This document shows positions 15,417 through 62,439 of a stretch of 62,439 nt of DNA, piece after piece; positions within the stretch are counted from its first letter, which is position 1, and the number at the start of each line of letters is the position of its first letter. The notes under the pieces are model-generated. The model searched no databases. It was given only the letters and a program-made list of their open reading frames with translations, and was not told the origin of the DNA. Position numbers and translations under genes: made by a program. This DNA comes from a virus. Lineage: Duplodnaviria; Caudoviricetes. Location: IMG/VR virus record IMGVR_UViG_3300020045_001610, positions 1-62,439 of that record, one strand, 5' to 3'.

Positions 15417-15431
15417 ACAAGGAGAAACAAT

Positions 15432-15872: not shown

Positions 15873-15943
15873 TTCGGAATTGAACTTAACTATTAACTGA
15901 AGGAGAGGGCTGGCAACGGCCCTCTTGTAAAAGGAGCTTTATC

Positions 15944-16540
15944 ATGGGATACAACGGCAAAGTATATCGTAAACAGGGTGGCAACGAACTGGTTGTTGCC
16001 AACGGCGGAAAGATTACAGTTAAAGCGGGTGGTTCGATTGATCGTGGCCTGAATCTTCGTATTCCGCTTCTTTCAGGGCGTACTGCAACAGGCGCTCCAA
16101 TTCTCGTAGCGGCTGCTGTTGCAACTGATTTTATTCCTTCTATTTCGGCAACCAACACGTTTAATCTTGCTGGAACAGTTTCAAACAACAACGCCAAAAC
16201 CAACGATGTTCTTTATGACATTGTATTGCCGAATGACTACGTTGCAGGTACGAACGTAACTGCCTACATTGCTGCTGGTTACGCAACTTCGGGCGGAACT
16301 GTCAGCCTCGCTACCGTTGATCTTGTTGCAGGTCTTGCAACTGACGCTGGTGCTGCTGGTGCTGATATTTGTGCTACTGCTGCAATCACAATTGCCGCCG
16401 ATACAGCCGAACATGCTTTCACGATTACCGGAACAACACTCACCCCAGGTTGCCGCATTGCGTTGAAAGCTACCGTAGCAATCACCAACAACAACGCTAC
16501 AAACACAACCGGATACATTTACGCTCTACGACTTGCATAA
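15944..16540 (+). CDS. putative head decoration/fiber protein
   Basis: YNGKVYRKQGGNELVVANGG N-terminus; Ala/Thr/Gly rich. Confidence 0.55.
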   Translation: MGYNGKVYRKQGGNELVVANGGKITVKAGGSIDRGLNLRIPLLSGRTATGAPILVAAAVATDFIPSISATNTFNLAGTVSNNNAKTNDVLYDIVLPNDYVAGTNVTAYIAAGYATSGGTVSLATVDLVAGLATDAGAAGADICATAAITIAADTAEHAFTITGTTLTPGCRIALKATVAITNNNATNTTGYIYALRLA

Positions 16541-16581
16541 TGATGCGCCCTTCGGGGCGCTGATTTTGGAAAGAGGTTAAA

Positions 16582-16899
16582 ATGAAAATCAAAATGCTTA
16601 CCACAAAATGCGGCCCTGTTTCTTCTGAGAATTGGGTTGAAGGTCAGAAGCGCAATGTGTGCGACGAAGAAGGCGAATATTGGATCAAGATGGGCGTTGC
16701 CACCTTGATTGAAAAATCAGTTGTCGCTCCTGCTGAGAAAGCTGTTATCACAGCTCCTGAACGAGCCGTTATCAAGCCGACAGAAACAGCTAAGGTCGCA
16801 GTATCCCCTGAACCTGTCAAGGCTACTGTAGCGGCCCCTGTGAAGCCTACAGCAGTTGCTTCAGCCAAAGCCGCTACTTGGGGAACACCCGCAGCATAA
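16582..16899 (+). CDS. hypothetical virion protein
   Basis: Ala/Pro/Val-rich repeated tail; RBS. Confidence 0.6.
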   Translation: MKIKMLTTKCGPVSSENWVEGQKRNVCDEEGEYWIKMGVATLIEKSVVAPAEKAVITAPERAVIKPTETAKVAVSPEPVKATVAAPVKPTAVASAKAATWGTPAA

Positions 16900-16908
16900 G
16901 GAGTTATA

Positions 16909-17226
16909 ATGTCTCAGTTACCAAGAGATTCCGATGGAATGAAACTTCAAGGCTTTATTCCCGATCCTGCCAAATCACAAGTTAACTCTGCAATTACTGG
17001 AACTAAAGTATTTAAAAAAGGTTCTGGTGCAGATGATGATATTACAGGTTGGCTTGCTCTAAAAGTAGTCGCTTCGGCTGCAAGCACTTACTACTTCAAC
17101 AGCGATAGCACCAAAACCATGCCACTTCCGGCGAATGTTGAAGTGGCAATTTTTGTCACTAATTCAGCAATAACTCAAGTTAGTTTGGTACTTGGGGCTG
17201 GAACCGCAAGCGTTCAAGGGATGTAG
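16909..17226 (+). CDS. hypothetical virion protein
   Basis: AAGGAG RBS. Confidence 0.6.
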   Translation: MSQLPRDSDGMKLQGFIPDPAKSQVNSAITGTKVFKKGSGADDDITGWLALKVVASAASTYYFNSDSTKTMPLPANVEVAIFVTNSAITQVSLVLGAGTASVQGM

Positions 17227-17239
17227 TTTCAGTGAATTG

Positions 17240-17275
17240 AAACCGGATTTAATTTTACGTTTAAATCCGGTTTTT
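17240..17275 (+). terminator. rho-independent terminator
   Basis: 13-bp stem AAACCGGATTTAA/TTAAATCCGGTTT plus Ts. Confidence 0.7.
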
Positions 17276-17306
17276 GCTTACTGAAAAAGATTTGTCGGAG
17301 GTATTC

Positions 17307-17696
17307 ATGTTAAGTCTTGCTAAAAATAATACACCTGCTTATGACTATTACAGCAATGGTGACGGTACTGATCCTGTAGTAATATCAGCTACGCTTGATA
17401 ACACAGGTGGTACTTCCAATACAGCGACTGTTACAACCTATCTGATTGCTACAACTTTTAAGTACACTGGAATTTCAGTAACTGTTGTTAACGAACAAAC
17501 AGGTATTGATTGGAAGTTGTCGCTTGATAACAGTACGTGGTTGGATACTGTAACGCCTGCTGATTTGAACGGGCTTAGCGCTGACGCCAATCATGTTGTA
17601 TATGTTCGGGGTGTAGTAACCAACGACGGTACAGTTGCTACCGGAGTTTATTCAACCCCTGACATTAGAATAACTAGCACTGAAAATCCAGTATAA
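17307..17696 (+). CDS. hypothetical virion protein
   Basis: GGAGG RBS; Thr/Val-rich. Confidence 0.6.
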   Translation: MLSLAKNNTPAYDYYSNGDGTDPVVISATLDNTGGTSNTATVTTYLIATTFKYTGISVTVVNEQTGIDWKLSLDNSTWLDTVTPADLNGLSADANHVVYVRGVVTNDGTVATGVYSTPDIRITSTENPV

Positions 17697-17708
17697 GGGG
17701 AATTTCTG

Positions 17709-17861
17709 ATGATAAGAAGCGTTAAAATCAAAATAGGGCAACCAGAAGAATTGGAAGCAATTTTGCCCGTTGATCGTGTTGTAGAAATTGACGAGGACGG
17801 TAGGTGTAGTCTATTTGACCAACAGATTATTATAGCTCATGAACAGATAGAAGAGGTGTGA
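17709..17861 (+). CDS. hypothetical protein (50 aa)
   Basis: manual ORF filling the gap; AAGGGG RBS. Confidence 0.5.
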   Translation: MIRSVKIKIGQPEELEAILPVDRVVEIDEDGRCSLFDQQIIIAHEQIEEV

Positions 17862-18202
17862 TGATGAATGGGATACCGATAAAGGGTAGTGATAATAATC
17901 AATACGTTACTCGTACTGAAACCGGTGTAGATGGTAAGGAAACGCAAGTAGTTGCAGGCCAATCAGACACATTCTTGCGCCGCTTGTTCCGCACATTAAA
18001 CCGTCTCACTTTCGACGTGTCAGGACAGTTACGAACAGCCGTAGCTGGTTCGGTATCAGTCAGCAGTGGGGTCGTGACGACTGTAGGTACTATGACCACC
18101 GGAAACATAGGCTTTAGTGACATGGGTAAACCTGCAACAGCAATGATAGTGAGTCGGCAACTTGCGGCGTGTGGCACGCAGCGCAACCTACGGAGACCTT
18201 AA
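17861..18202 (+). CDS. hypothetical protein
   Basis: GAGGTG RBS. Confidence 0.6.
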   Translation: MMNGIPIKGSDNNQYVTRTETGVDGKETQVVAGQSDTFLRRLFRTLNRLTFDVSGQLRTAVAGSVSVSSGVVTTVGTMTTGNIGFSDMGKPATAMIVSRQLAACGTQRNLRRP

Positions 18203-19633
18203 ATGGACATGATAAATGATAACATACGAGTCACAAACCTACCAGAGTGGGAACAGATGATGTTTGCTCCCGCAACGGGCATTGCGGGAACTAACATTGT
18301 CGATGATAACAAACGGTACATTTATGAGTATTTCCAGACATCAGCAACAGCTGCACAGTTTTGGAGATACGACACCTGGAATGACACTTACCAGCAGTTA
18401 GCAACACCCCCTACTCAGACAGGCACAGTTGCTAATATGACGTACACAGAGGGCGAAGGTGGTCAATGGTCGGGCCGCACGTTCGGAGCTGTATATCTGT
18501 TCGTGGGCAACGGGACTGTTTGTTACCTATACCGTTATAATGTTGCCACTAACACATGGAGTGCTGCACTTAGCACTGTCGGCATCCCCGCTGCATTCGC
18601 CACAGATTGTTATTTGATGCATCCTGGCCCTAGTCGTAACGGATGGGAGGGTGGTTATCACGCAGGAGTATTGCGTACTATCACGTTAGGTGCAGACGTA
18701 GCAGTAGGTGCTACCACAGCACCAGTAGCGGCACTACCTGAAGCACTCCCCGCAGGAGCGCGTTTACGGTTTGGCACGTTTGACATAACTCTCTCGGCAG
18801 CAGTATCAAGAGGCGAAACAACGCTTCCAGTAACAGCCCTCCCGCAAGGCATCGGGGTTGGCACAATCTTGATGACTGCCGGAGGCGATGACGTGATCCT
18901 GTCAGCTGCGGCATCGGCAGGCGCAACCAGCGTATCTGTTTACCCATTATTCAGAGGTATGGCGAGCGGCACAGTTATAACAGTTGAGCAGTTTGTAGTG
19001 TTAACAGCCGCAGCTGCTATATCAGCAGTATCAATTACTATTGCCGCAGCACTCTACACAATAAGCACAGCCGCAACAGCACTCTATTACGGGCAGATAT
19101 ATCTAGTAGGTAGCAACGCGACGGTTATGTACCGGTACAATAAAGGCGCAAACCTTTGGTACACTACAAGCGCGAACAGTGGCAACCCTGCTATTCCAGC
19201 ACTGCCAGGATCAGCTGGTCTGGGTTGTGCATTAAAATGGCTACCTGCATACGCACCGGATAAGTTGTGGTGCCTACGTGGAGGTGCGACAGCAACCTCG
19301 TATATATACGATCTTGTGGCGAATGCCTGGGCAACAGAGACATTTTACCCATCGACTGAGACGTTCACTACAGGCACTACAGTTGCCAGCCGTTCAATCG
19401 GAGGGAAGCAAACCACGCTCTTGATTCAGAAAGACGCAACAATGAGAATTTACGAGGGCAACCCCGCTAAGAACTCGCTTGAGCCAGCGTTTACGCAGTT
19501 CATTTATCCTACAGGCGCAGCGGTAGTAGGCGATAAAGCAACGTGTATCGTCACCCCAGATGGCCTTGAGTATTACTACATGCTGTTGCCGTCATCTACA
19601 TCATTTCTACGCACTATGCTACTTGACCGATAA
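18203..19633 (+). CDS. Kelch-like beta-propeller virion protein
   Basis: repeated FWRYDT..., LYRYNVATNTW, YRYNKGANLW, YIYDLVANAW. Confidence 0.6.
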   Translation: MDMINDNIRVTNLPEWEQMMFAPATGIAGTNIVDDNKRYIYEYFQTSATAAQFWRYDTWNDTYQQLATPPTQTGTVANMTYTEGEGGQWSGRTFGAVYLFVGNGTVCYLYRYNVATNTWSAALSTVGIPAAFATDCYLMHPGPSRNGWEGGYHAGVLRTITLGADVAVGATTAPVAALPEALPAGARLRFGTFDITLSAAVSRGETTLPVTALPQGIGVGTILMTAGGDDVILSAAASAGATSVSVYPLFRGMASGTVITVEQFVVLTAAAAISAVSITIAAALYTISTAATALYYGQIYLVGSNATVMYRYNKGANLWYTTSANSGNPAIPALPGSAGLGCALKWLPAYAPDKLWCLRGGATATSYIYDLVANAWATETFYPSTETFTTGTTVASRSIGGKQTTLLIQKDATMRIYEGNPAKNSLEPAFTQFIYPTGAAVVGDKATCIVTPDGLEYYYMLLPSSTSFLRTMLLDR

Positions 19634-20355
19634 TGTTATTAGCTCTTTACCCAGCTTGGGGTAGTCAAACAACAGCGATTGAATCTTATTTTAATTTATC
19701 TGCTGTTGTTAGCTCGACAATAACAAACACTACAGATTTATCTGGTGTAATTAGTAATTCAGTGCTTAACATCTCAGATACTTACGCTGTAATAAAGTTA
19801 AGTTCAACAAAATATGTTGACTTAAAATCTTTAATTTCCAACCAAGAATTAAAGTATGTTGATTTAACAAGTATCGTTAAATCTAGTTTAAGCAGTACCT
19901 TTGATACTTCTTCTGTATTGCATTCAAGTTTTATTAATTATTGTGATTTGTCTGCAACTGTAAAAACAGCAAACGATATATCTACTGATACTATTTTAAA
20001 AGTTTTAACTTCAGTTCAAAAATTAGTAGACACAACGACTCAAATTACTACTTCAGTTTTAGTTTTTGTTGACACAAATTCGCAAATAACAAATCCTTAC
20101 GAACTGTCTGTAGATGCTTCAGGCCACGTTAATACTTACGAACTGTTGTTAGTAGATATGCAAATAGGTATTGTTAACATAATCAGATTACCTGCTGACT
20201 ATGTTTTATTGCTTGTATCTACAACGCCTTATTCGTTTCAAACTAATTCTGTTTACGAGTTTACTTCTTCAGCACACACTAATTGGGATGTTTCAGCGCC
20301 TGATTTAAATTTAACATCTCAAAGTGGATTTATTTTAAATGTAATTCCTGCTTAA
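19633..20355 (+). CDS. Ser/Thr-rich 14-residue repeat protein
   Basis: Asp every 14 aa over about 11 units. Confidence 0.6.
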   Translation: MLLALYPAWGSQTTAIESYFNLSAVVSSTITNTTDLSGVISNSVLNISDTYAVIKLSSTKYVDLKSLISNQELKYVDLTSIVKSSLSSTFDTSSVLHSSFINYCDLSATVKTANDISTDTILKVLTSVQKLVDTTTQITTSVLVFVDTNSQITNPYELSVDASGHVNTYELLLVDMQIGIVNIIRLPADYVLLLVSTTPYSFQTNSVYEFTSSAHTNWDVSAPDLNLTSQSGFILNVIPA

Positions 20356-39662: not shown

Positions 39663-39872
39663 TTAAAAAGGGAGTTCAATGCTCCCCCATTCGCCACAAG
39701 CTTTAGCAATTATCTTTGCAGGTGGTCGTTGATCGTACAGAATGCAAACTTCACGTTCAAGTTCAAATCTAGTGCAATTTAAACACGAACGCAACTGCGT
39801 GTCAAGTATAAAAATGAGTTGCTTGCATAATTCTTCAGACAAATCTTTAATCGCTTGTTCGCGTTCTGTCAT
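39663..39872 (-). CDS. small Cys protein
   Basis: SCLNC...C...RPPAKII..C. Confidence 0.55.
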   Translation of the reverse strand: MTEREQAIKDLSEELCKQLIFILDTQLRSCLNCTRFELEREVCILYDQRPPAKIIAKACGEWGSIELPF

Positions 39873-39885
39873 TTGAAGCTCCGTT

Positions 39886-40110
39886 CTAAGATTGTTTAAT
39901 AACATTGTCACGAATCATTTGCTTGTAAGCTTCTATTTTATAAAACTTAATTTCAAGTTGCTTTATCAAATTGTCAGCACAAGCAAGTTCTTGCATAATA
40001 TCGGCATCTTCAAATACCCATTCATTTTGAGATAAACCACCCAAACTGTATTGGTCAAGTTCTCTAGCTTTTTCAAATATTTCGTATCTGTTATTCAGTT
40101 TATATTTCAT
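39886..40110 (-). CDS. hypothetical protein
   Basis: ORF in operon. Confidence 0.55.
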   Translation of the reverse strand: MKYKLNNRYEIFEKARELDQYSLGGLSQNEWVFEDADIMQELACADNLIKQLEIKFYKIEAYKQMIRDNVIKQS

Positions 40111-45208: not shown

Positions 45209-45433
45209 TTAAGCCACTTTAAGATTAACTACTAGATCAATAAACCCTTGGATTGTGTCAAGTTGTGTAATTGCATCGTCATCCAAAGTTACATCAAATT
45301 CATCTTCAAGACTTAGTGCAAATTCAATCCTGTCAAGTTCGTCAGCATCAAGACTGTCAAGAGTTGAATCGTTTTCTACTTTGCAACCAAACTGCTCTGC
45401 TGCGATTTCTTTTACTCTTTGTTCAATGTTCAC
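45209..45433 (-). CDS. acyl carrier protein-like, Ser-to-Glu at attachment site
   Basis: IEQRVKEIAAEQFG...DADELDRIE..LSLEDEFD...IDL aligns with AcpP. Confidence 0.8.
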   Translation of the reverse strand: MNIEQRVKEIAAEQFGCKVENDSTLDSLDADELDRIEFALSLEDEFDVTLDDDAITQLDTIQGFIDLVVNLKVA

Positions 45434-51856: not shown

Positions 51857-52063
51857 ATGATTACCCACAAATTACGAGATAAAACATTGAAGTTATTGAG
51901 GGAACGCAAGGCTAACGTTAAGCTTTCAGACATATCTGAAATTACAGACTTACCTTTAACTTGGTTAAAGAAGTTTTGTTACGAAGGTGACGACATTTGC
52001 CCGTCAGTTTCGTATATAGAAACTCTTTATGAATTTCTGACTAATAAGAAGTTGAAGATATGA
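51857..52063 (+). CDS. HTH (Cro-like) protein
   Basis: LSDISEITDLPLTWLKKF...PSV. Confidence 0.7.
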   Translation: MITHKLRDKTLKLLRERKANVKLSDISEITDLPLTWLKKFCYEGDDICPSVSYIETLYEFLTNKKLKI

Positions 52064-52412: not shown

Positions 52413-53252
52413 ATGAAAGTCCTTTCTTTATTTGACGGCATCTCTTGTGGGAAACTTGCGCTGGATCGCGCCGGTATTAACGTAAGTCATTACGTCGCTT
52501 GCGAAATTGACAAATACGCAATTCAAGTTAGTAAAGCAAACCATAAAGATATTGAACACATAGGTGACGTTACTAAACTGACATTTCAACCAGATTATTT
52601 TGATTTACTTATCGGCGGTTCGCCTTGCCAAGGGTTTTCATTTGCAGGTAAAGGTTTAAATTTTGAAGACGAACGAAGTAAACTGTTCTTTGAATACGTT
52701 AGGATTTTAAACGAAGTAAAACCTGAATACTTTTTGCTTGAAAATGTAGTAATGAAACAAGAATTTCAAGACGTTATTTCTGGTTATTTGGGTGTAAAAC
52801 CAATTAAAATCAATAGTTCACTACTAAGTGCTCAGAACAGAGAACGTCTTTACTGGACAAATATACTGAACGTAGCACAACCGGAAGATAAAGGTATTGT
52901 TTTATCAGATATATTGGAAACGGATTATAGCTTTAAACTTTATATCAAGATGAATAAAATTAAGAATTGTCATACCAAAGCAGGTTGTTTGCATGGAACT
53001 GCTAACGCAGCGGGTAATCATTCACAAATGGATGTTATTGTAAAAGATAACGAAGTTGTACCTCTAACAAGTACAGGTAGAATTGACATTCATATTAATC
53101 CTAACGTTCGTAGATACAACATAGTTGAATGCGAGCGACTTCAAACACTACCTGACGGTTACACAAAATCAGTTTCACCTTCTCAAGCGCATAAGCAAAT
53201 AATAAACGGTTGGACTGTTGATGTAATTGCTCATATTTTATCATTTATTTAA
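52413..53252 (+). CDS. C5 DNA cytosine methyltransferase
   Basis: FDGISCG, GSPCQGFS, ENV, QNRER, ECERLQ. Confidence 0.9.
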   Translation: MKVLSLFDGISCGKLALDRAGINVSHYVACEIDKYAIQVSKANHKDIEHIGDVTKLTFQPDYFDLLIGGSPCQGFSFAGKGLNFEDERSKLFFEYVRILNEVKPEYFLLENVVMKQEFQDVISGYLGVKPIKINSSLLSAQNRERLYWTNILNVAQPEDKGIVLSDILETDYSFKLYIKMNKIKNCHTKAGCLHGTANAAGNHSQMDVIVKDNEVVPLTSTGRIDIHINPNVRRYNIVECERLQTLPDGYTKSVSPSQAHKQIINGWTVDVIAHILSFI

Positions 53253-53283
53253 AATTCAATTTAATATATACAAGGCGGGATTA

Positions 53284-55620
53284 ATGGAACGCTATGTACC
53301 TGAAGAACTCCGCATTAAAATGCCGTGGATATTATGGCAGTCACGTCAAGATTCACCTGATACAAAAGCTACTAAATTACCAATTGACCCTTACACAGGC
53401 CGGTTAGCTTCAGTTACAAATTCTGCAACTTGGGGCGCTTTTGAGCTTTGCTACAGCATAAAGCATTGCGCTACAGGTATGGGTATAGTCTTGCTCAAAG
53501 CGTTGGGTTACACCTGCATTGACCTGGACGAGACAGACGATCCCGTTGAACAAGCACGTCATCAAGCTATCATTAAAGCGTTCAACTCATACACCGAATA
53601 CTCACAATCTGGAAAAGGGTATCATATATGGGTTCGCGGCGTAGTTCTAATGGGTAGACGACGCGGTAAAGTTGAGATGTATTCAGACGGAAGATACATG
53701 GCGACAACTGGCAACGTATTTTTAGACGTACCAATACGTGAATGCCAAGAACTTCTAATGAGTTTATGGGATGAACTGGAAGTTAAAGAAAAGATAACAT
53801 CGGATATAGATAACCCTGAAGTTCATACCGACACTGAGGTTTTGACGTTTGCTTCCAGCGCAGCGAACGGACAGAAATTTATTGATCTTTGGGAAGGTCG
53901 GTGGCAACTGTACTATGACGATGAAGTTACAAAAGTAAGTTGCAACGAAGCAGATTTCGCACTTATAAATATTTTGGCCCACTACACTCAAAACAGAAAT
54001 CAAATTACACGTTTGTTTTTAAGTTCTGCGTTAGGAAAGCGTGAAAAAGCAAAACGCACTCAATACGTAGGCTACATGTTAAGTCGCGCCTTTGACAGAA
54101 TTCCGCCACCTTTAGACTTATCGGCGCTTCACGCCAATCTCGAATTACAACTTCAGGCTTCGAGAATTAAGCCTGAGTCGGTTATTGCGCCACAACCCAT
54201 AGCACCGGAGCCTGTTAAGCACGTTGAGCATCATAGCAAGCCTCAGAAACATTCAAAAAACGATATATCTGGATTTACATATACAGTACCCCCAGGGCTG
54301 TGCGGCGAGCTCGCTATGTTTATTCACAATGCTGCACCCCGTCCGGTTCCTGAGATTGCGATTGCCGGTGCAATTGGATTAATGAGTGGTATTTGTGGAC
54401 GTAGTTATAATGTAAGTGGAACTGGGCTTAATAATTATATATTTTTGTTAGCCAAAACCGGACGGGGCAAAGAGGCGATGGGTTCTGGAATTGGTAAATT
54501 AATAAACGCCGTAGTTAAGACTGTTCCAGCAGCTACAGCTTTTTCAGGGCCGAGTAAAATTGCATCTTCCGAAGCACTTTTAAAATATATTTCTAAAACG
54601 TCAAAATGTTTCTTATCTATAATGGGTGAGTTTGCTGATAGTTTGAAACGTATGTCTAACGACAGTAGAAACCCTGTTCAACAGGGAGTTCGACAAGTCA
54701 TGCTCGATCTTTATAATAAGTCTGGAAATGGAAATATTTTAGGTAATTTAATTTATTCAGATAAAGATAAAAACACCGAAGTTATAACCGCACCGGCATT
54801 TTCTATTTTAGGAGAAGCTACTCCTGAAAAGTTTTATGAATTATTATCCAAAGATATGATAACTGAAGGTTTACTTCCCAGGTTTTGTATTATTGAATAC
54901 AGTGGCCACAGAGTACAGTTAAACAAAGAACATCACAAAGCAATCCCTTCGCAACAGTTAACAGACCGTTTTGCAGCTTTGTGCACCTATTCCCTACAGT
55001 TAAACAATGGTGACAATTCTTTGGATGTTGTTTTAGATTCAGACGCTCAACGGTTGTTTGACGAATTTGATATGTACTGTGACAAAAAGATAAATAGTGG
55101 AAGTGAGATAAATCAAGAACTTTGGAACAGAGCACATATAAAAGCGTTAAAAATGGCGGCGTTACTGGCAGTTGGTTGTAACTACATTCAGCCGGTAGTT
55201 AACGCCGAATGTGCAAATTGGGCTTTAAATCTAGTAATTAACGATGTTAAAAATATACTCAGTCGTTTTGAATCAGGTGAAGTAGGTTTACCACAAGTAC
55301 AGAATGAACAATTTATTGACATCTACAAGGCATTTAAAAAGTATATGAAAGAGGATTGGCAAGCGGTTAACAAATACGTAGGCGCTTCGCTAATTACTCA
55401 CGAAAATCATTTGGTTCCGCATAGCTTTATAACAGCACATTGTAGGAATAAAGCTTCTTTTAAATCTGATCGACTAGGGCCAGTTAACGCAGTTAAGACA
55501 ATACTTCAGTCAATGATTGAGTCGGGTGATATTCAAGAAGTAAGTCCTTTGGATAAACAAAAATATAACCTTCCAAAGAACGGCAAAATTTATGCTCTTT
55601 TGAATTTGAGTTTAATATAA
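53284..55620 (+). CDS. primase-polymerase fused to DUF3987-like ATPase/helicase
   Basis: IDLD, EYSQSGKGYH, EMY; AKTGRGKE, GLLPRF. Confidence 0.85.
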   Translation: MERYVPEELRIKMPWILWQSRQDSPDTKATKLPIDPYTGRLASVTNSATWGAFELCYSIKHCATGMGIVLLKALGYTCIDLDETDDPVEQARHQAIIKAFNSYTEYSQSGKGYHIWVRGVVLMGRRRGKVEMYSDGRYMATTGNVFLDVPIRECQELLMSLWDELEVKEKITSDIDNPEVHTDTEVLTFASSAANGQKFIDLWEGRWQLYYDDEVTKVSCNEADFALINILAHYTQNRNQITRLFLSSALGKREKAKRTQYVGYMLSRAFDRIPPPLDLSALHANLELQLQASRIKPESVIAPQPIAPEPVKHVEHHSKPQKHSKNDISGFTYTVPPGLCGELAMFIHNAAPRPVPEIAIAGAIGLMSGICGRSYNVSGTGLNNYIFLLAKTGRGKEAMGSGIGKLINAVVKTVPAATAFSGPSKIASSEALLKYISKTSKCFLSIMGEFADSLKRMSNDSRNPVQQGVRQVMLDLYNKSGNGNILGNLIYSDKDKNTEVITAPAFSILGEATPEKFYELLSKDMITEGLLPRFCIIEYSGHRVQLNKEHHKAIPSQQLTDRFAALCTYSLQLNNGDNSLDVVLDSDAQRLFDEFDMYCDKKINSGSEINQELWNRAHIKALKMAALLAVGCNYIQPVVNAECANWALNLVINDVKNILSRFESGEVGLPQVQNEQFIDIYKAFKKYMKEDWQAVNKYVGASLITHENHLVPHSFITAHCRNKASFKSDRLGPVNAVKTILQSMIESGDIQEVSPLDKQKYNLPKNGKIYALLNLSLI

Positions 55621-56478
55621 ATCAGTGTCGTCAATTGAAATATGTTCAATTGGAAATTCAGCAAGCATTAACTCTTCTTTTTGTTTTCTTATGGTTTCTT
55701 GTCTCTTTATAACTGAAGCAGCTTTCTTTTCCTTACCTTCAGGCGTGTTCCAAAATTCTTTTATTGCAGCGGCTCTTTTAGCTACCGTTTCAGGGGATTG
55801 TGGTTTTGTTTTCTTGCCTTTTTGCCAAGCACTCTTTTTAGCTAAGGTTTCAGGTGAATCTTTTCTACCAATGTTATTTTTAGCCATTTCATAGCAGCGT
55901 TCAATTGCGCCTGGGGTTGCAGGTCTTCCAGTTGCGGCTATTACCATCTTATCTCTTGACTCTCTAGTATGCTGTTTTCCAGTAAAGCCAATTTTACGTT
56001 TATTTTTAACTTCTTCGCTTGCATTCAAAGCGTTAATTCTTCGTTTTTCCCTTGTTATTTCTGTTACAGGAGGTCTTTTCTTTGCCGATTCACTCATTCT
56101 ATTGCAAATTTCAGCATTTCTTTTCTTACCTGTATTTTTAAGTCTTATTTTTTCACGAGTTTCTTCGGTAACTGTTCTTGTACTTAAACCTAATCCACCT
56201 AGGGAATGATTGGTTAAATTTGCGCCTAAAGACCTCATATAAGCAATCCAAAATATTTCAGCTTCAGGCCATTCACTAAAATGATTTAAAGTTTCCAAAA
56301 TAATAATTTCAGGTTTATTCGGTTTTAAAGACCTAATCCAATTTGCACAGTATGTTCTACGGTTAGGATTGTCGTGGCAATGAGCATAAAGCCTAAGTCC
56401 AATATCTACCGATTTTCCAACATATCTAACTTCCGATGTAAATGGATCAAGTAACGCATAAATATGGGTAGGTTTCAT
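55612..56478 (-). CDS. GIY-YIG homing endonuclease with NUMOD3-like repeats
   Basis: HIYAL...YVGKS...R, E..WI, LTN; repeated ETREKI. Confidence 0.85.
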   Translation of the reverse strand: MKPTHIYALLDPFTSEVRYVGKSVDIGLRLYAHCHDNPNRRTYCANWIRSLKPNKPEIIILETLNHFSEWPEAEIFWIAYMRSLGANLTNHSLGGLGLSTRTVTEETREKIRLKNTGKKRNAEICNRMSESAKKRPPVTEITREKRRINALNASEEVKNKRKIGFTGKQHTRESRDKMVIAATGRPATPGAIERCYEMAKNNIGRKDSPETLAKKSAWQKGKKTKPQSPETVAKRAAAIKEFWNTPEGKEKKAASVIKRQETIRKQKEELMLAEFPIEHISIDDTDLY

Positions 56479-56600
56479 TAATCACCTCTAATTTATAATG
56501 GATTTGACAATTTGTAAATGAGATATAGCATTACCGCAAGTACAAGTCAACCGAAATAAATTGTTAGGTAATTACAAGCAGTTAAGGTAACCACCGAAAG

Positions 56601-56651
56601 TTAATGCAATATAAACAAAAGTATTAGCAGAATGATTATTAGGATTAGCAT
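56601..56651 (-). CDS. 16-aa hydrophobic peptide, copy 1
   Basis: MLILIIILLILLFILH; AAAGGA RBS. Confidence 0.55.
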   Translation of the reverse strand: MLILIIILLILLFILH

Positions 56652-56848
56652 GATTTAGTCCTTTCGTAATAACCTTTTAAACCAAGACGTTGAGCAATTC
56701 TATCACATTCAGCGCAATACATTTCAGAATCACGTTGATACTGTAGCAGAAAATTAACATTGCTAATTGTCGGTGCATATTCCATTTCTTTTAAATGCTT
56801 ACGTTGCTTTACAGTTAACCTTTGAGGTACTGTCTTTTTAGCTTTCAT
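56645..56848 (-). CDS. hypothetical protein
   Basis: GGAGG RBS. Confidence 0.55.
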   Translation of the reverse strand: MKAKKTVPQRLTVKQRKHLKEMEYAPTISNVNFLLQYQRDSEMYCAECDRIAQRLGLKGYYERTKSC

Positions 56849-56852
56849 AACC

Positions 56853-57089
56853 TTAAACCTCCCCTTGTATTGCTTCATCACTTGTAACACCTTTACAATC
56901 ACGTTTCAACTGTTTTAAAGCATTAGCAGCAATCTTTCTGTCAATTTCTTTATTGATATAAGTTAAACCTTGAATCAGGAATAGACAAGCTTTCTTAGTA
57001 CCTACATATACAACAAGTTCACCTGACGGAAAGTTGTAGCGTCTTGTAGCATGTTTAGTTCCTTTGTTTATGTGTTTGCATAGTGTCAT
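56853..57089 (-). CDS. hypothetical protein
   Basis: ORF track. Confidence 0.55.
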   Translation of the reverse strand: MTLCKHINKGTKHATRRYNFPSGELVVYVGTKKACLFLIQGLTYINKEIDRKIAANALKQLKRDCKGVTSDEAIQGEV

Positions 57090-57249
57090 TTTACACCGCC
57101 TAATTTAGCGGTTATACTAACTTCAGCTAAAAGTTTTTCAGCATCAGGAAAGCCAATTTCTTTTAATTCGTTTACAGCATCAGAAAAGCTCTTTTTGCCG
57201 GTCAAAATATCATTTGCAAACGGTCTAATGTGTTTCATTAGAAAGGCGT

Positions 57250-57588
57250 TCATTTTGCACCGCCAGTTAAGCGGGAAATGAAAGCCTGAACGGTTAAGTC
57301 ATTACCTGGATACGGGCCTCTAATGTTGTATGCTTTGCAATCTTTGGCACAATTGCACAAAATAACATGCTCTTGTTGTGCCGATTTAAGTGAATGCTTA
57401 ACAGCTACAATATTGCCAAGTTTTAGCGGTTTACCAAAATCTTCAATTACATTCTTTTCAACAATAAAAACATCATCATTTAAATTGTCGTAACAATCAC
57501 GACAGAAAGCATCTTCGTTATTGCCATAATAAACTTCATTGAAATGGTTTATAGTTTTGCTGCATTTATCACAAGTTTTATATTTCAT
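57250..57588 (-). CDS. zinc-finger protein
   Basis: CDKC...CRDC; AAGGAG RBS. Confidence 0.6.
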   Translation of the reverse strand: MKYKTCDKCSKTINHFNEVYYGNNEDAFCRDCYDNLNDDVFIVEKNVIEDFGKPLKLGNIVAVKHSLKSAQQEHVILCNCAKDCKAYNIRGPYPGNDLTVQAFISRLTGGAK

Positions 57589-57817
57589 TAGCTTTAGTCT
57601 CCTTTATTGTAGGTAATTTAAGTCAGTTAAGGAACTTTAGACAGTTAAGAAACTGTAGACAGTTAAACACGTTCAAAATAATCCAATGCTGCTAACGCAC
57701 CTTGCCCATAACCAGCTAATGTAAAAGCTTGTGCAATTGTGTCACCTTTAACAATTTCTTCTTTACCGTCTAACCAGTACAGTTTATAAGTATTCATTTT
57801 AAATCTCCTTTTAACAG

Positions 57818-57868
57818 TTAATGTAATATAAACAAAAGTATTAGCAGAATGATTATTAGGATTAGCAT
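57818..57868 (-). CDS. 16-aa hydrophobic peptide, copy 2
   Basis: same peptide; alternative in-frame ATG at 57880. Confidence 0.5.
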   Translation of the reverse strand: MLILIIILLILLFILH

Positions 57869-57901
57869 GACGGCAACCATTCTAACTTCCAGCGGTAACA
57901 G

Positions 57902-58261
57902 TTAAGGGTTATGTATTTGTTTAGCACCACGTAAAGCAGCGATTCTCTTTTGATCCATTTGATACGAAAAGCGACTAACTACAGTTAAGTTGTAACCGAT
58001 TGCAGTTAACTCCTTATAGAGCGGTATAAACTCTTTTTCCTCTTTATCATTATAAAACATCGGAAAAGCTCTTTTTGTTCCGTCAAGCGTAGCTTTACCG
58101 CTGCCATGTTGACCGTTGTGCATGTAGTTAAGGCAATTCAACACGCTGTTATCTCCTGGCAATTCGGGAAACAATGCTATAACTTCATCGTCTGGAAATT
58201 TGCGGAATATTACTTTTGTTTTTTCTTGTATTGTTGCGTCAATCTTGCTTAGTTTACCCAT
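57902..58261 (-). CDS. phage early-type protein
   Basis: VIFRKF...IALFP...YMH.GQH; AAGGAG RBS. Confidence 0.65.
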   Translation of the reverse strand: MGKLSKIDATIQEKTKVIFRKFPDDEVIALFPELPGDNSVLNCLNYMHNGQHGSGKATLDGTKRAFPMFYNDKEEKEFIPLYKELTAIGYNLTVVSRFSYQMDQKRIAALRGAKQIHNP

Positions 58262-58460
58262 TTTGTTTACTCTCCTTTAAAGACAATGTTTAGTTATCCA
58301 GATTTTAGCAGCGTGTAAACTTTTGCATACTTGTGTAAAACCATTATTAAAACGTACTTGACAATCGTTTGAAGTTGTAAAAGTTGTTATCATATAACCG
58401 TGGTATATGACTAGCTTTTCCACAATTCACCCCCTTAACAGTTAAGTTATTTATCTACAG

Positions 58461-58657
58461 TTAACGATAATAGCGCAATCCATCTTCAGTGCATTTGATC
58501 CAGCATTTAGGTAATCCGTTCTTGTCTGCCCACAATTCAACCGGAAAGGTTTTGTAGTGTGTTGATCCTTCAACAAACTTAATTTCGCTCATTGTCGGGG
58601 TTCTATGTGCTTCAATTGTTTTAACGTCTGCTCTAAATGGTAAGCTTGATTTTTCAT
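58461..58657 (-). pseudogene. frameshifted small gene
   Basis: ATG with strong RBS is out of frame with the long ORF unless the A5 run is A6. Confidence 0.4.
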
Positions 58658-58719
58658 GGTTAATTCCTTTCTTTGTAGGTAATTAGTGACAGTTAAAGCA
58701 ACGGTTAACAGTTAAACAA

Positions 58720-59205
58720 CTATTTACAAAACCTTTTAGCAGTCATAAACTTAACATAGTTATCAGCCTGTTTATACGTTTTGAAACGTGCAATCAATTC
58801 TTTGTTACAGTAAACCGCTTGTGTATAAGTTGCATTATCGGCGGTTAACAATTCATTTCCAATTTCCCATAAACCAAAATCAAGTTTAGGATGTTTGTAC
58901 AAGCAAACGCCGGACGTTGTATAAATAGCAACTATGCAATGTGCAAGAATACCATCACCGCCTGAAGAGTTTTGATTATGTATAAGTAAAGGGATTTTTG
59001 ATCCGGTTGAGCGTCCGATATAACCGCAAACGTCATTTTCTTCATTCCAGCATTTTCCGGTTTTTGTATCACCTAAAAATATTCTTACACGTTGTTGACG
59101 ATTATAACAGTTTAAACCTGAAATAACTTTCATAACTTCAATATTTGTTTCAGGATTAAACCAATAACCATTATATTCTATTTCTTTTCTCGTTGTCTTT
59201 TTCAT
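58720..59205 (-). CDS. phage early-type protein
   Basis: RVRIFLGD.KTG..W.EE.D..GYIGRSTG. Confidence 0.7.
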   Translation of the reverse strand: MKKTTRKEIEYNGYWFNPETNIEVMKVISGLNCYNRQQRVRIFLGDTKTGKCWNEENDVCGYIGRSTGSKIPLLIHNQNSSGGDGILAHCIVAIYTTSGVCLYKHPKLDFGLWEIGNELLTADNATYTQAVYCNKELIARFKTYKQADNYVKFMTAKRFCK

Positions 59206-59278
59206 TGTAAACCCCTTTTAGTTAAAGTAATTGGTTGCAGTTAAAGCAAGTCAAGACAGTTAAGGCAATGCTTAACAG

Positions 59279-59470
59279 TTAACGCTTGACAAATTGAATA
59301 CATCCAAAAAGCGGCCCTGTTTTAAGGTGTAATTGTAAGCCTTGATCGTCAAGAAAATCAGCATCAAGCGCAAAATCATTACCGGTCAAAGGCTTGCTAG
59401 TTTCCAGCCAGTCTATTTTATTGCATTCTGTATTATGTTTATTCCAAAATTTGCAATCTTTACAATTCAT
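59279..59470 (-). CDS. Cys-rich small protein
   Basis: CKDCKFW...FGCIQF. Confidence 0.6.
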   Translation of the reverse strand: MNCKDCKFWNKHNTECNKIDWLETSKPLTGNDFALDADFLDDQGLQLHLKTGPLFGCIQFVKR

Positions 59471-59580
59471 AACATATCCTTTCCTGAATATATGATTTTC
59501 TGAATATCGTCTCTAAGCGGTCAAGATTTTACCCTATACGTTACCCTTGACCGCTTGCCGTTTGACCTTCCTGGGGCCTC

Positions 59581-59877
59581 TCAGGAGGTCAAAAATCTTG
59601 TTAATGTGACGGTATTTCCGATAAATTCGATTGTCTCACCTTTATAGATAACGTACCAGATTCCCTTTTTCTGAAATACCGTATAGTCAAGGTTATACTC
59701 TTGACTTGCTAAGTTCATTCTATTTTTAGTTGTATTTGTCTTATAGCCGCCGGTGTCAAGCTTTATTGTTTCACTATCAAACGATACAATTTTAGTATTG
59801 TGAAGTTCAATTTCAGTTCTACAACTATCATTGTTATAGGTTATACGTGTATTTCCCTTTTTGCATAGTTCTACCAT
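59581..59877 (-). CDS. phage early-type protein
   Basis: LHNT...GGYKTNTTKNRMN. Confidence 0.65.
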   Translation of the reverse strand: MVELCKKGNTRITYNNDSCRTEIELHNTKIVSFDSETIKLDTGGYKTNTTKNRMNLASQEYNLDYTVFQKKGIWYVIYKGETIEFIGNTVTLTRFLTS

Positions 59878-59979
59878 GATTTGTCACTCCTTTGTAATTG
59901 GATTGCTACATCTTACAAGCTTTAAAGCTTAAACAGTCAACAGTTAACAGTTAAGCTTTAAAGCTTTACATAGTAACAA

Positions 59980-60351
59980 TCAAAAATCTTGAATTATAAA
60001 GCTTGAACCGTCAATATCTATAACTTGTGTATATTCGCGTATTTTGTCAATTGTCGCTTCATAGTCAATAACACCCTCAATCGGTTCTGTTTCGTCGTCG
60101 CCTTCCTCTGGTTCTGTTTCCCATACAATGTAACTATCATTGTAAGCTTTTATAAACTCTTCTACGTTTTCATATTCAGTGTATTCACAGCACAATGCTA
60201 TAACGTCAAGTTCTATTTCTTCTCCCGTTACTTCTTCATATTCTTCCAAGTAATCAAACAACGCTTTTTTACCGGCGTAACTAAAATTGTTTTCGCGATT
60301 GCAATCAATAAACGCTTTTTCAAAATTATAACTACTAACAGTCGTTTTCAT
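59980..60351 (-). CDS. highly acidic protein
   Basis: about 34 D/E vs 8 K/R in 123 aa. Confidence 0.7.
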   Translation of the reverse strand: MKTTVSSYNFEKAFIDCNRENNFSYAGKKALFDYLEEYEEVTGEEIELDVIALCCEYTEYENVEEFIKAYNDSYIVWETEPEEGDDETEPIEGVIDYEATIDKIREYTQVIDIDGSSFIIQDF

Positions 60352-60449
60352 GGTATTTCCCCTTTTTAATTGTTTGATAATGGGTAACAGTTAACGTCCG
60401 TTTACTATCTCATATACTGCCCACAATAAACAGAGTATTCCGCCAGTTA

Positions 60450-60726
60450 CTAGCATTTCTCGAATACTCTTGAATAAGTAACTTTGTCAAAATATGCTGA
60501 ATCTTTCAATCCATGCTTTACAGCACGCTTGCGGTAAAGTTCCCAGACATCTCGCTTTACACCGTCACTGTGATAGTTACCCTCATTGTCATAATTTGAG
60601 AGTATAACAGTAGAACGCACACCGTAATTTGCCATTGTATCACCAAAAAAATTTCATACTGCTACAATCAAAGAAATGCAAACCACTACCTAATTCAACG
60701 TTATATTTAAGTTCTGAAGGTCTCAT
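60450..60726 (-). pseudogene. gene apparently split at a T7 run
   Basis: removing one T joins MRPSELK...MKFF to GDTMANYGVR. Confidence 0.4.
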
Positions 60727-60877
60727 TGTCTCAATTCTCCTTTATAGGTTTAATTTGTGGGCAACATGATTTACAGTATTTTTGTGCCTGTAAAGCCTTT
60801 TCATAGCTTTTGTGTCTGGATATTGTTTCGCCTTGCTCGTTTATTAGTTCGTATTTGAATATCATTTTAAACCGCCT

Positions 60878-61189
60878 TTAAACGTAAATTATAGTATTGT
60901 AAGAATCGAATGAACAACGATTGTCTTTTGCCGTAAAGGTATGAACAATGATAAATTTACCGTACTGATAAACTGTATCATTACCGTCAAGAGTTAATGA
61001 GCTAGTACCACGAAAAATCTTATTACCTTTACGAGTGCAAATTGTTTTAGTTAAGCTTGACGTGTCAATATTGATATTTGTGTCAAGCAATGTTTTTGTT
61101 TCGTCAAGAGTTATACCTTTTGCACATATCAGATATAAACCTTCACTTGTAGCTATATCGTAAAACTTTTCTTTAGTTATTTTTTGCAT
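60878..61189 (-). CDS. hypothetical protein
   Basis: GAGG RBS. Confidence 0.6.
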   Translation of the reverse strand: MQKITKEKFYDIATSEGLYLICAKGITLDETKTLLDTNINIDTSSLTKTICTRKGNKIFRGTSSLTLDGNDTVYQYGKFIIVHTFTAKDNRCSFDSYNTIIYV

Positions 61190-61234
61190 AACCTCACCCC
61201 TTTTAAAGTTTAATGATAACAGTTAATAGTTAAA

Positions 61235-61528
61235 TTACATTCTATCGTTACAAACAATCATACTAGTATATTGTCTACCGTCATTATAAAAGCATTCCAG
61301 GTCGGCTATAATCTCTTGTAAATTTTCGTCAATAGAGAAACAATCGTCAATAAGCATGTAACCGGATTCTAAAAAGCCTGTATTAGTTGCACCGCCGAAA
61401 ACAAGGCGCTTATCAGTAGCATAAATGTAGAAGTCGTGAAACTCGCCAGCGTTGTCTTGAAACTCAATTAAGCCAACATATTTTCCAGTCTCTTCAGCGT
61501 TTGAATAATCCCATTTTGAACTTTTCAT
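61235..61528 (-). CDS. acidic hypothetical protein
   Basis: AAGGG RBS. Confidence 0.6.
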   Translation of the reverse strand: MKSSKWDYSNAEETGKYVGLIEFQDNAGEFHDFYIYATDKRLVFGGATNTGFLESGYMLIDDCFSIDENLQEIIADLECFYNDGRQYTSMIVCNDRM

Positions 61529-61553
61529 AATATTTTCCCTTTTAGTTATTTAA

Positions 61554-61802
61554 TTAGCTTAAATACAATTCAGTTTTACCGCTATATGTTGTCCATCCTA
61601 ACCACGCTATACGACTGTCTAACATGCCTATAGACGGCCACACAAATTTAGTTTTAACTTCATACCCTACTTTTGGAACTTTGCCGGTAATTGATAAAAG
61701 TTTTGCTGTTTTACGGTCAATTGTCAAGTAACCATCCCAGCGTAAAACAGCTTGAAATTGAGTACCGTCCGGTAATGTTTTAATCACGTGTTCTGCTTTC
61801 AT
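61554..61802 (-). CDS. hypothetical protein
   Basis: AAAGGGG RBS. Confidence 0.6.
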   Translation of the reverse strand: MKAEHVIKTLPDGTQFQAVLRWDGYLTIDRKTAKLLSITGKVPKVGYEVKTKFVWPSIGMLDSRIAWLGWTTYSGKTELYLS

Positions 61803-61814
61803 AATTTACCCCTT

Positions 61815-61883
61815 TCAATGATTAGTGTAATAAACCGTACAAATTAGGATTGATACCAGAAACAAGTCAATTGCAATTTGCAT
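61815..61883 (-). CDS. 22-aa hydrophobic peptide
   Basis: MQIAIDLFLVSILICTVYYTNH; AAGGGG RBS. Confidence 0.4.
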   Translation of the reverse strand: MQIAIDLFLVSILICTVYYTNH

Positions 61884-61899
61884 TTAAAACCCCTTTCAA

Positions 61900-62079
61900 T
61901 TACTTTGTTTCGTGCATTCTAATTAACTTCATTCCAATACTTTCATTTTTAGCATAAAAACCGGTATCGTTTGAACAATTACGGATATAAACACGGTCTT
62001 TAATATCACCCGAAAGTCTTATTGTAAAAACCTTGTCGTTATTTAATCTGATAGTTGTTTCGTTGATTGTAAGTTTCAT
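61900..62079 (-). CDS. hypothetical protein
   Basis: AAAGGA RBS. Confidence 0.55.
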   Translation of the reverse strand: MKLTINETTIRLNNDKVFTIRLSGDIKDRVYIRNCSNDTGFYAKNESIGMKLIRMHETK

Positions 62080-62178
62080 TGTCATTCCTTTCGTCGTAAG
62101 ATACTTTATACATTGCAGGTTGCTTGCCAAGTTTTATATTTATTTTTATTTATTATTTACTTTGTCATTTCAACTACT

Positions 62179-62226
62179 TACTTACTTAGTTACTTATTTA
62201 ATTACCTACTTGGTTACTTACTTATA
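62179..62226. repeat. 4 x 12-bp imperfect tandem repeat
   Basis: TACTTACTTAGT/TACTTATTTAAT/TACCTACTTGGT/TACTTACTTATA. Confidence 0.7.
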
Positions 62227-62439
62227 CCTCATATCAGACATATAACTATCTATCACTTTATATAATACGTTGTAAACTATTGTTATCACTACGTTATATT
62301 AGCACCTCATATCAGGTAGTCATTACTTCATTTAAGGTATACTCTTTTAGCCTGTAATATCCTTTTAACTATATCGCACACGTAGCAACTACCATTCCAA
62401 AGTTCATTTTAGCTCTTAATTAAGACTTCTTAAAAACAG

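Follow-up and report, generated by a model that had tools for sequence, protein, structure and literature searches.

Polar TTAACTG repeat arrays in the early transcription unit of uncultured siphophages and their possible reading by a LytTR-type regulator

What reads a seven-base word that recurs, always in the same orientation, along the early genes of a phage? This question is raised by the IMG/VR virus record IMGVR_UViG_3300020045_001610 (Duplodnaviria; Caudoviricetes), the whole of which (62,439 bp, class 'linear', estimated completeness 81%) was analysed and is called the window here. The transcription unit that bears the repeats is a minus-strand block of ~19 early-type genes (55612..62130), nearly all of them function-unassigned according to open reading frame (ORF) calls and Pfam/PHROG comparisons, with a GC content of ~34.5% compared with 41% for the window. 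On the sense strand of these small genes the word reads TTAACTG (CAGTTAA on the plus strand), and its arrays are strictly polar, strongly conserved and co-extensive with the early transcription unit. An earlier note on this DNA had listed 21 copies and had offered iterated protein-binding sites, mRNA processing or antitermination signals, or Chi/KOPS-like polar signals on first-entering DNA as explanations. We tentatively favour the first of these, in the form that the head-to-tail repeats are protein-binding sites acting as orientation-dependent brakes on early transcription, with a reader that is of the LytTR type and probably host-encoded.

A polar repeat co-extensive with the early transcription unit

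Between positions 54900 and 61300, CAGTTAA occurs 26 times on the plus strand and not once on the minus strand (copies span 54916-61226); the remaining 54.9 kb of the window contain 4 plus-strand and 7 minus-strand copies. The word is the most frequent 7-mer of the region, and the most frequent 8-mer is ACAGTTAA (19:0). All 21 copies listed before are present at their positions on the plus strand, the 26:0 ratio bears out the single orientation claimed for them, and the copy positions confirm a spacing of 18-19 nt inside clusters. Five further plus-strand copies (54916, 54955, 54997, 55481 and 55490; 54916..55496) lie in the 3' part of the primase gene, on its antisense strand, so that they share the minus-strand sense orientation of the arrays. 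Markov models of order 1, 2 and 3 predict 1.2, 1.7 and 3.8 copies in the region; the previous estimate of fewer than one copy was thus slightly low, and the enrichment is real against all three backgrounds. Over the whole window there are 37 copies, a number reached by none of 100 dinucleotide shuffles (mean 14.0, s.d. 4.0).

A consensus pooled from 105 sites in six genomes (the window and relatives described below) defines a unit of ~19 nt, c-TTAACTG-YYAnnRn-TT(G/A)C-Y, in which the heptamer is invariant and T occupies unit position 15 in 87 and position 16 in 80 of the sites. TT(G/A)C stands at a fixed distance from the heptamer, and the distance to the next heptamer is variable: among 48 adjacent spacings of up to 60 nt, 17 measure 19 nt, 15 measure 21 nt, three 18 nt, two 23 nt and none 20 nt. 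Single-mismatch variants standing in phase number seven in all, across 21 variant types, and TTAACTA (31:4) is the only variant enriched in the sense orientation. Such arrays occupy almost all spacers of the early operon. Most of the 65 arrays consist of one (24) or two (35) units, the others of three (4), four (1) or six (1), and in 27 of the 65 the first TAA of the array is the stop codon of an upstream open frame 30 or more codons long. Where a Shine-Dalgarno (SD) sequence and a start codon follow (52 arrays), the start lies 30-34 nt past the last heptamer in 20 cases and 25-39 nt past it in 28, and the unit therefore abuts the SD. The extension TTAACTG-N5-AATTAC ahead of a ribosome-binding site, noticed before, was found again at four sites (56579, 57624, 58690 and 59238).

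Within the unit, neither covariation nor a hairpin was detected, candidate pairing frequencies being equal to the expectation under independence, and an Rfam search at a permissive threshold returned 0 matches. Sigma-70-type promoter matches in the region (33 vs 30.3 ± 6.3) and intrinsic-terminator-like sites (4 vs 4.5 ± 2.3) occur at chance level. The element is neither a sigma-70 promoter of the adjacent gene nor an intrinsic terminator nor an RNA hairpin.

The primase led to a first relative (L009/G006; 57% identity), which contains 18 same-strand copies downstream of primase and one in the opposite orientation; in the six-genome comparisons this relative is called R and the window W. Further carriers were found by scanning a viral collection for the composite element. 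Arrays are present in L009/G006, G001, G002, G003 (=G005) and G009, and G004 is a partial case with one small cluster; the same polar array thus recurs in at least six further uncultured phage contigs. Whole-record counts on the array strand and the opposite strand were 29 and 11 in G001, 37 and 4 in G002, 15 and 0 in G003, 10 and 2 in G005, 22 and 7 in G006, and 21 and 2 in G009, and the reversed word, counted as a control on the record forward/reverse, gave 5/5, 6/9, 4/5, 6/3, 3/5 and 3/4, respectively. Within seven related blocks there are 144 sense and 6 antisense copies. These blocks represent about five independent lineages, given that G003 and G005 are the same region, G001 and G009 have ~90%-identical segments and G004 contributes one cluster. 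No small-gene family is common to more than three of six blocks, and the carriers have in common only the replication core and a few small proteins; the arrays are conserved while the small genes change. The cultured phages Loki and MiCath carry no array. Searches of the literature by sequence word or descriptor, with subscription journals outside their scope, found no published description of the array among the papers listed.

The copies inside the primase gene bear on whether the word is constrained as a nucleotide signal. The primase/helicase gene (53227..55620, plus strand) is convergent with the small-gene block, and its antisense strand holds 5 copies in W, 9 in G002 and 6 in G003. Synonymous-codon shuffles preserving protein sequence and codon usage gave means of 1.16, 2.08 and 1.13, respectively, and 0 of 2000 reached the observed number in each genome; the in-primase copies are maintained beyond coding need. 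Codon alignment attributes some of them to codon choice, such as Gln-Leu encoded by CAG TTA vs CAG CTT in G001, and others to lineage-specific residue changes. These copies show selection on a non-coding signal overriding codon choice. The positions 54955 and 54997 are common to W, G002 and G003, and many of the in-primase copies are lineage-specific gains. By our reading, the TT(G/A)C half is kept in only 3 of 20 in-primase copies, which marks the heptamer as the primary element.

No copies occur in the primase genes of R, G001 (C-terminal part only) and G009. In these three genomes, mutually homologous hairpins of -14.8, -26.4 and -21.8 kcal/mol, respectively, separate the primase stop from the last small gene; in W, G002 and G003 the gene ends overlap and a comparable hairpin is absent. 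In the window, the primase/helicase stop overlaps the end of the GIY-YIG gene, the last of the small-gene block, with no strong hairpin between them. With a hairpin before primase in three genomes and copies in primase only in the three without it, the motif is present wherever early transcript is expected.

The one-strand polarity across 5-12 kb, together with the location of the arrays 0.1-2.6 kb from a contig end in every carrier, is what a Chi/KOPS-like or entry-related polar signal might show if a translocase, a nuclease or the injection machinery recognized it on the DNA end that enters first. We consider this role, one of those suggested before, very improbable. The copies are limited to one transcription unit, where they form phased tandems in spacers beside SDs instead of being spread along the DNA, they stop exactly at the terminator hairpin in R, G001 and G009 (three of the six genomes), and the blocks differ in length, from about 5 to 12 kb. 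The contig ends need not be physical termini (IMG/VR class 'linear, no end repeats'), and the position of the block most likely reflects an assembly break in a hypervariable region; the HNH-TerS-TerL cluster lies elsewhere in the window, at 5.2-9.2 kb, and gives no ground for a physical end beside the array. Furthermore, bacterial genomes contain the composite motif no more often than chance predicts, with 95 matches in 596 Gb (roughly 140 expected by our own arithmetic), and the element is thus not one of host genomes. Count-rich loci considered as candidates for a host-genome element proved to be unrelated coding or other repeats, and a match found in five species of Acinetobacter lies inside an ORF.

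LytTR box identity and candidate readers

On the antisense strand, the flanking preferences of the heptamer read (A/G)CAGTTAA(G). This corresponds to the binding box of AgrA and related LytTR-type regulators, for which a consensus of [TA][AC][CA]GTTN[AG][TG], arranged as imperfect direct repeats 12-13 bp apart, has been given (PMC5600425). The commonest 9-mers at the phage sites are ACAGTTAAG (35 of 143) and GCAGTTAAG (34 of 143), the latter off consensus at position 1. The full consensus fits 54 of the 143 sites, and positions 2-8 fit all 143 by construction; consensus matches number 101 on the antisense and 32 on the sense strand, vs ~45 per strand in shuffles. Probes of the S. aureus P2/P3 promoters contain ACAGTTAAG and, on the other strand, CTTAACTGT (PMC8228455). 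Among 401 sampled Bacilli genomes, six contain the paired box ACAGTTAAG-N10-13-ACAGTTARG and none the reversed control, and in one of these loci the boxes immediately precede AgrB and AgrD genes and face the promoter.

The likeness to AgrA boxes extends from the identical 9-mer to the layout, which is that of head-to-tail direct repeats in both, and the 21-nt period of the phages equals 9 bp plus the usual 12-bp spacer. LytTR systems use nine-bp repeats with 11-13 bp spacers, placed 4-11 bp upstream of the -35 element (PMC6193735). The phages, in contrast, have not just one or two pairs but dozens of sites in each genome, and these sites stand in intercistronic spacers abutting SDs instead of upstream of a -35 element. 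The phage boxes also face against transcription and have no promoter at the canonical distance, half of the phage pairs have a 10-bp spacer, the conserved TT(G/A)C is additional, and no phage LytTR protein was found in the genomes searched. Given the absence of a canonical promoter on the box-facing side, a bound LytTR-type protein would not be a classical activator; AgrA is reported to act as a repressor of bsaA when bound downstream of the promoter (PMC4227749).

Of the explanations offered before, iterated protein-binding sites are the best supported, by the head-to-tail units of 19/21 nt, by the lack of RNA-type covariation and by a 9-mer that is a known protein-binding box. From these features we infer that a protein binds, which kind of protein it is and that its binding blocks transcription. 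The heptamer would be the core of an asymmetric protein-binding DNA repeat, and a LytTR-type DNA-binding protein, most likely a host response regulator, would occupy the arrays. The bound protein would act as an orientation-dependent brake or roadblock on RNA polymerase crossing the early operon, in the way proposed for mycobacteriophage stoperators, and early-gene expression or its shut-off would thereby be tied to the signalling state of the host. Where no terminator precedes the convergent primase, bound arrays would also stop read-through. Being short and invariant, the element would be easy to test, and both its sequence and its arrangement suggest one particular reader, a LytTR response regulator.

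Several observations weigh against a brake of this kind. An invariant 7-mer, with only seven in-phase single-mismatch variants, is unusual for an operator, and strict polarity is more simply explained by recognition at the RNA level. The rest of the window shows no avoidance of isolated heptamers (5 sense and 6 antisense in 54.9 kb by our tally). The hairpin contrast at primase effectively involves two lineages: the three hairpins are homologs of one another, and two sites are common to W, G002 and G003. As for the box itself, adjacent units have a period of 19 nt in about half of the pairs, which leaves a 10-bp spacer outside the 11-13 bp LytTR range, G stands off consensus at position 1 of the 9-mer in 45 of 138 sites (twelve listed 9-mer types), and the published box contains nothing that matches the conserved second half TT(G/A)C, 7 nt downstream. 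In neither direction do the boxes stand upstream of promoters; on the box-facing side, 23 of 68 arrays have a -10-like hexamer at 27-38 nt vs 22 and 19 of 68 in controls. The agr loci of genomes with the exact box have GC contents of 28-38% vs ~41% for the phages, although GC content and SD strength are no more than suggestive as to the host. Lastly, a six-frame search of the window and five carriers (records 41-81% complete) for LytTR domains (PF04397) found none above the cut-off.

The sole PF04397 match (E=0.058) falls within a shadow ORF on the antisense strand of a gene for 364 aa and was rejected. The best candidate for a phage-encoded reader was a 68-aa helix-turn-helix (HTH)-like protein (51857-52063, plus strand) encoded immediately upstream of primase in all carriers, which has no match in Pfam or PDB. 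It is weakly similar (26% identity, E=3e-6) to a 'putative DNA-binding protein' encoded at the same position in Acinetobacter phage Loki and is not similar to MiCath gp44. This protein was rejected as well, because it also occurs in the complete relatives G011, G012 and G013, which are bounded by direct terminal repeats and lack the array; by our reading, its putative recognition-helix residues vary among carriers and the heptamer does not. No repressor, integrase or HTH family was recognized among the 59 non-structural window ORFs scanned, and a relaxed Pfam scan of 12 function-unassigned proteins yielded nothing. Contrasting carriers with non-carriers yields only a Sak4-like ATPase and a 70-aa coiled-coil protein, and the Sak4-like ATPase (5/5 carriers, 0/3 complete non-carrier relatives) is the only clean carrier-specific protein. 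As the phages encode no recognizable LytTR protein, the reader is most likely a host response regulator, and a host factor would be a more economical reader than a phage protein. A small acidic protein with a DSLD-type motif (45209-45433, minus strand), acyl-carrier-protein-like by eye, has BLAST matches in G001, G002 and G003, shares a cluster with an ORF of R and is absent from the three non-carriers.

A farther-reading version of the host-encoded brake is possible, although doubtful: the carriers would be a clade of virulent siphophages with 20-40 boxes per genome for the quorum-sensing LytTR regulator of the host, distributed over the entire early operon. Through orientation-dependent roadblocks at these boxes a cell-density signal would brake or gate early transcription, or else replicating phage DNA would titrate the regulator from its host promoters. 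If this were true, a lytic phage would read or disarm host quorum sensing by cis-acting DNA alone, without a phage receptor. Confirmation of the reader would add a new phage route to host quorum sensing and a new form of transcription control by polar roadblocks.

A further possibility is that each small gene has its own early promoter, on the model of the T1-type and PeSL (promoter-early stem-loop) cassettes, the unit serving as the upstream box together with a -35-like TTGACN/TTGCYN. The second half of the unit does resemble a -35 hexamer, AgrA-dependent promoters have long spacers of 18 and 20 nt (PMC4227749), and an extended -10 follows the T1 repeat, whose 3' half is similar. Two arrays are followed by promoter-like sequences recognized by eye. 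The first array of G002 (L051, 840-923), with six boxes of which the last three are 9 nt apart, is followed by TTGACA-19 nt-TATAGT and a 76-nt gap, the only convincing long-spacer promoter behind an array; in the window, the array at 59934..59954 is followed by TTGACT-19 nt-TAAGAT and then by gene 59581-59877. In most arrays, however, the 25-39 nt from the last heptamer to the start codon leave no room for a -10 element, a start site and an SD leader, downstream -10-like counts are flat (7-16 per 5-nt bin), and -10-like hexamers at 27-38 nt occur in 22 of 68 arrays, equal to controls. Sigma-70-type matches at chance level point the same way, and the selected antisense copies in primase make no sense as promoters. 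We therefore regard a promoter function of the unit as quite unlikely.

The mRNA processing suggested in the earlier note is retained as the main rival of the host-encoded brake, and antitermination is weakly compatible with the observations. In this alternative, the signal is read on early mRNA as UUAACUG(N7)UURC and serves as an endoribonuclease site, a translational operator or a 7-nt small-RNA seed match, and the antisense-primase copies would mark read-through RNA for destruction. RNase III processing between T7 early genes provides a model for cleavage, which would divide the polycistronic transcript directly ahead of each SD or initiate its decay. Such a signal would account for the strict polarity relative to transcription, for a motif range that tracks the predicted transcript extent and for the abutment of the unit on the SD; heptamer invariance is typical of nuclease or base-pairing recognition, and the in-primase copies are mostly the heptamer alone. 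Set against this are the absence of RNA structure, covariation and Rfam matches, tolerated variants without the wobble-compatible pattern predicted for a small-RNA seed, and a tandem duplication at a fixed spacing of 19/21 nt that cleavage does not need. No nuclease or RNA-binding protein is specifically common to the carriers, the window's remaining transcription units show no avoidance of sense heptamers, and the LytTR-box identity and direct-repeat layout would be left as coincidence. Recognition on RNA, although somewhat less likely than the brake, is a strong rival; it would represent a new sequence-specific system of processing or translational control for phage early genes.

Comparison with known phage repeats and the variable gene block

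The stoperators of cluster A mycobacteriophages are closest in kind. These are more than 20 asymmetric sites that occupy short intergenic spaces, follow the direction of transcription and lose their activity on reversal; a monomeric phage repressor recognizes them, and repressors of the L5 type are proposed to stop elongation in one site orientation only (PMC9283540). The present arrays likewise comprise many asymmetric sites in short intergenic spaces with an orientation tied to transcription. They differ in sequence, in being mostly tandem pairs instead of single sites, and in their restriction to one operon vs the whole genome. They also differ in that no integrase gene and no gene for a repressor such as the mycobacteriophage immunity repressor, with its HTH and stoperator domains, is recognizable here; the reader may be a host protein, and the phage, for the same reason, looks virulent.

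A 22-bp repeat of coliphage T1 and Citrobacter phage Stevie, with 16-20 copies, is described as having an unknown role (PMC4319613). We located 22 copies in T1, each of them single and often supplying the upstream stop codon. By our reading, a stem-loop bearing an extended -10 (TGnTATAGT) and a leader of ~25 nt come after each copy, which lies ~56-66 nt before the next start. As in the present case, the T1/Stevie repeat belongs to virulent siphophages and is asymmetric, mainly intergenic and oriented with transcription. Its TAG is often the upstream stop, as is the TAA of TTAACTG here, and its 3' half TTGYTAA resembles the TTGCTAA of the second half of the L009 units. The T1 repeat differs from the array in sequence and has the geometry of a promoter cassette, resembling PeSL elements, whereas the units described here are tandem, free of stem-loops and run straight into the SD.

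PeSL elements of T4-type phages are conserved intergenic elements ahead of ORFans and at mosaic boundaries (PMC2839356). The arrays resemble them in standing ahead of ORFans in a hypervariable region and at mosaic junctions (20/88 endpoints). PeSL elements are, in contrast, ~100 bp long and combine a strong sigma-70 promoter with a terminator stem-loop, neither of which was found here. The element thus differs from the stoperators, the T1/Stevie repeat and PeSL in its sequence, its tandem layout, its abutment on the SD and its lack of a promoter or stem-loop. Known polar intergenic repeats come from temperate mycobacteriophages, where a phage repressor reads them, and from T1-like virulent phages, where they are unexplained; the present array is a clean and conserved example in uncultured virulent-type phages.

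The resemblance to PeSL also brings up the possibility that the arrays are mainly cassette boundaries, brief stretches of conserved homology by which phage recombination would shuffle the small genes, involving the Sak4-like ATPase, the single-stranded-DNA-binding (SSB)-like protein and the Cas4-type exonuclease, with any effect on expression being secondary. This would be compatible with the other explanations, and PeSL-mediated shuffling has been documented (PMC2839356). The gene content of the block is highly variable while the arrays are constant, and 20 of 88 endpoints of homology blocks (at least 100 nt) lie no more than 25 nt from a heptamer, vs 8.7 for random positions, and 20 is reached in 1 of 2000 simulations. 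The carrier-specific distribution of the Sak4-like ATPase, present in all five carriers and none of the three complete non-carriers, fits as well. On the other hand, 14% of ORF boundaries lie near a heptamer vs 23% of the endpoints, so that the excess over ordinary mosaicism is modest, and Loki and MiCath have Sak4-like genes without the array. Neither the selection for same-orientation copies in primase nor the exact invariance of seven bases is explained by cassette boundaries, and we consider a mainly recombinational role unlikely.

Arrays and genes of the window

Along the small-gene block of the window, the arrays (all with the minus strand as sense strand) are listed here in the direction of transcription. 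A single unit at 61220..61226 precedes the ATG of gene 60878-61189 by 30 nt, and another at 60388..60394 precedes that of gene 59980-60351 by 36 nt. At 59934..59954, two abutting heptamers (59941 and 59948) are joined by a one-mismatch TTGACTG (59934-59940). Three units with a 19-nt period follow at 59238..59282; the first TAA is the stop of gene 59279-59470, and the last unit lies 32 nt ahead of the ATG of gene 58720-59205. The spacer between these two arrays at 59471-59585 is the sole long spacer of the block without an array. It contains a hairpin with a 12-bp stem (minimum free energy -29.9 kcal/mol, z = -2.67; 2 of 200 shuffles as stable), has no match in Rfam and may represent an internal attenuator or a structured RNA.

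Two units with a 19-nt period at 58690..58715 precede, as established by a frame check, a 22-codon ORF with its ATG at 58657 (58589-58657, minus strand). This ORF has a good SD, shares an ATGA stop/start overlap with gene 58461-58592, and falls below the 30-aa floor of the ORF list. Another pair with a 19-nt period (58439..58464) begins with the stop of gene 58461-58592 and ends 15 nt ahead of the GTG of gene 58277-58423. A pair with a 21-nt period (57982..58009) lies within the coding sequence of gene 57902-58261 and is kept in the homologous gene of contig G002.

Single units at 57899, which supplies the stop of gene 57902-58261, and at 57815 (together 57815..57905) stand on either side of mini-ORF 57818-57868, and unit 57815 lies 17 nt ahead of the ATG of gene 57663-57797. 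The stop of that gene is the first TAA of three units with an 18-nt period (57624..57666), the last of which is followed by N5-AATTAC and an SD and lies 35 nt ahead of the ATG of gene 57250-57588. Further single units are found in a gene overlap just upstream of gene 57086-57253 (57264..57270) and within ORF 56645-56848 (56812..56818). The last unit of the block (56579..56585), with N5-AATTAC, lies downstream of mini-ORF 56601-56651 and ~100 nt upstream of the GIY-YIG homing-endonuclease-like gene (55612..56478, minus strand).

The two mini-ORFs are identical 16-codon ORFs on the minus strand that encode the purely hydrophobic peptide MLILIIILLILLFILH within a ~50-nt repeat. The one at 57818-57868 closes on the TAA of a heptamer, the one at 56601-56651 ends 16 nt upstream of another heptamer, and a near-identical stretch precedes a heptamer in G002 (L051, about 8259-8281). 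A role as small membrane peptide or leader-type peptide is conceivable.

Upstream of the first small gene, an AT-rich stretch (62131-62300) contains short reiterations of the TAAGTAAGTAAC type, and beside it stands a promoter-like TTGGCA-16 nt-TAAAGT at 62130-62103 (minus strand). The region 62131-62300 is probably the main early control region, cut by the contig end.

By appearance, the phage of the window is a virulent siphophage. A lysis, packaging and structural module on the plus strand extends to ~35.9 kb and includes genes for HNH (5212), TerS (5616), TerL (6217), portal (11136), major head (14112), tape measure (24994) and central tail fibre (29834) proteins. The minus-strand replication module (36.2-51 kb) encodes a polymerase, a clamp, a helicase, the Cas4-type exonuclease, the SSB-like protein, the Sak4-like ATPase, a ligase, ThyX and a MazG-like protein. 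It is followed by a short plus-strand block (51.8-55.6 kb), the last genes of which encode a methyltransferase and the primase/helicase. No sigma factor, RNA polymerase, repressor, integrase or tRNA was found in the window. A close cultured relative is absent: nucleotide searches of 55600-62439 against cultured phages returned zero matches, and protein identities reach at best 46% (primase), 52% (polymerase) and 45% (head protein).

The TerL ORF (6217-9183, plus strand) encodes 988 aa, far above the usual length, with PHROG matches in two separate stretches and weak DnaC-like and primase-like matches in its N-terminal third, and may contain an intein or a fused domain. Adjoining the helicase and clamp genes, 39663-39911 (minus strand) encodes a small Cys-rich protein (C-x2-C ... 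C ... C) with 39-84% identity in all five carriers that is also present in two of the three non-carriers and may be a zinc-ribbon replication accessory factor.

Among the carriers, L009 contains at about 12000-20000 a strand-specific word of its own, CGATGTGG (often CGATGTGGCATTG; 11:0), which may be a coding tandem repeat. In the 94.9-kb carrier G001, a 364-aa ORF (L188, G001:712-3786; 889-1983, plus strand) beside a 172-aa ORF encodes what we take, by eye, to be an RtcB-type RNA ligase-like protein, which, if the identity is true, would add an RNA-repair function to this genome.

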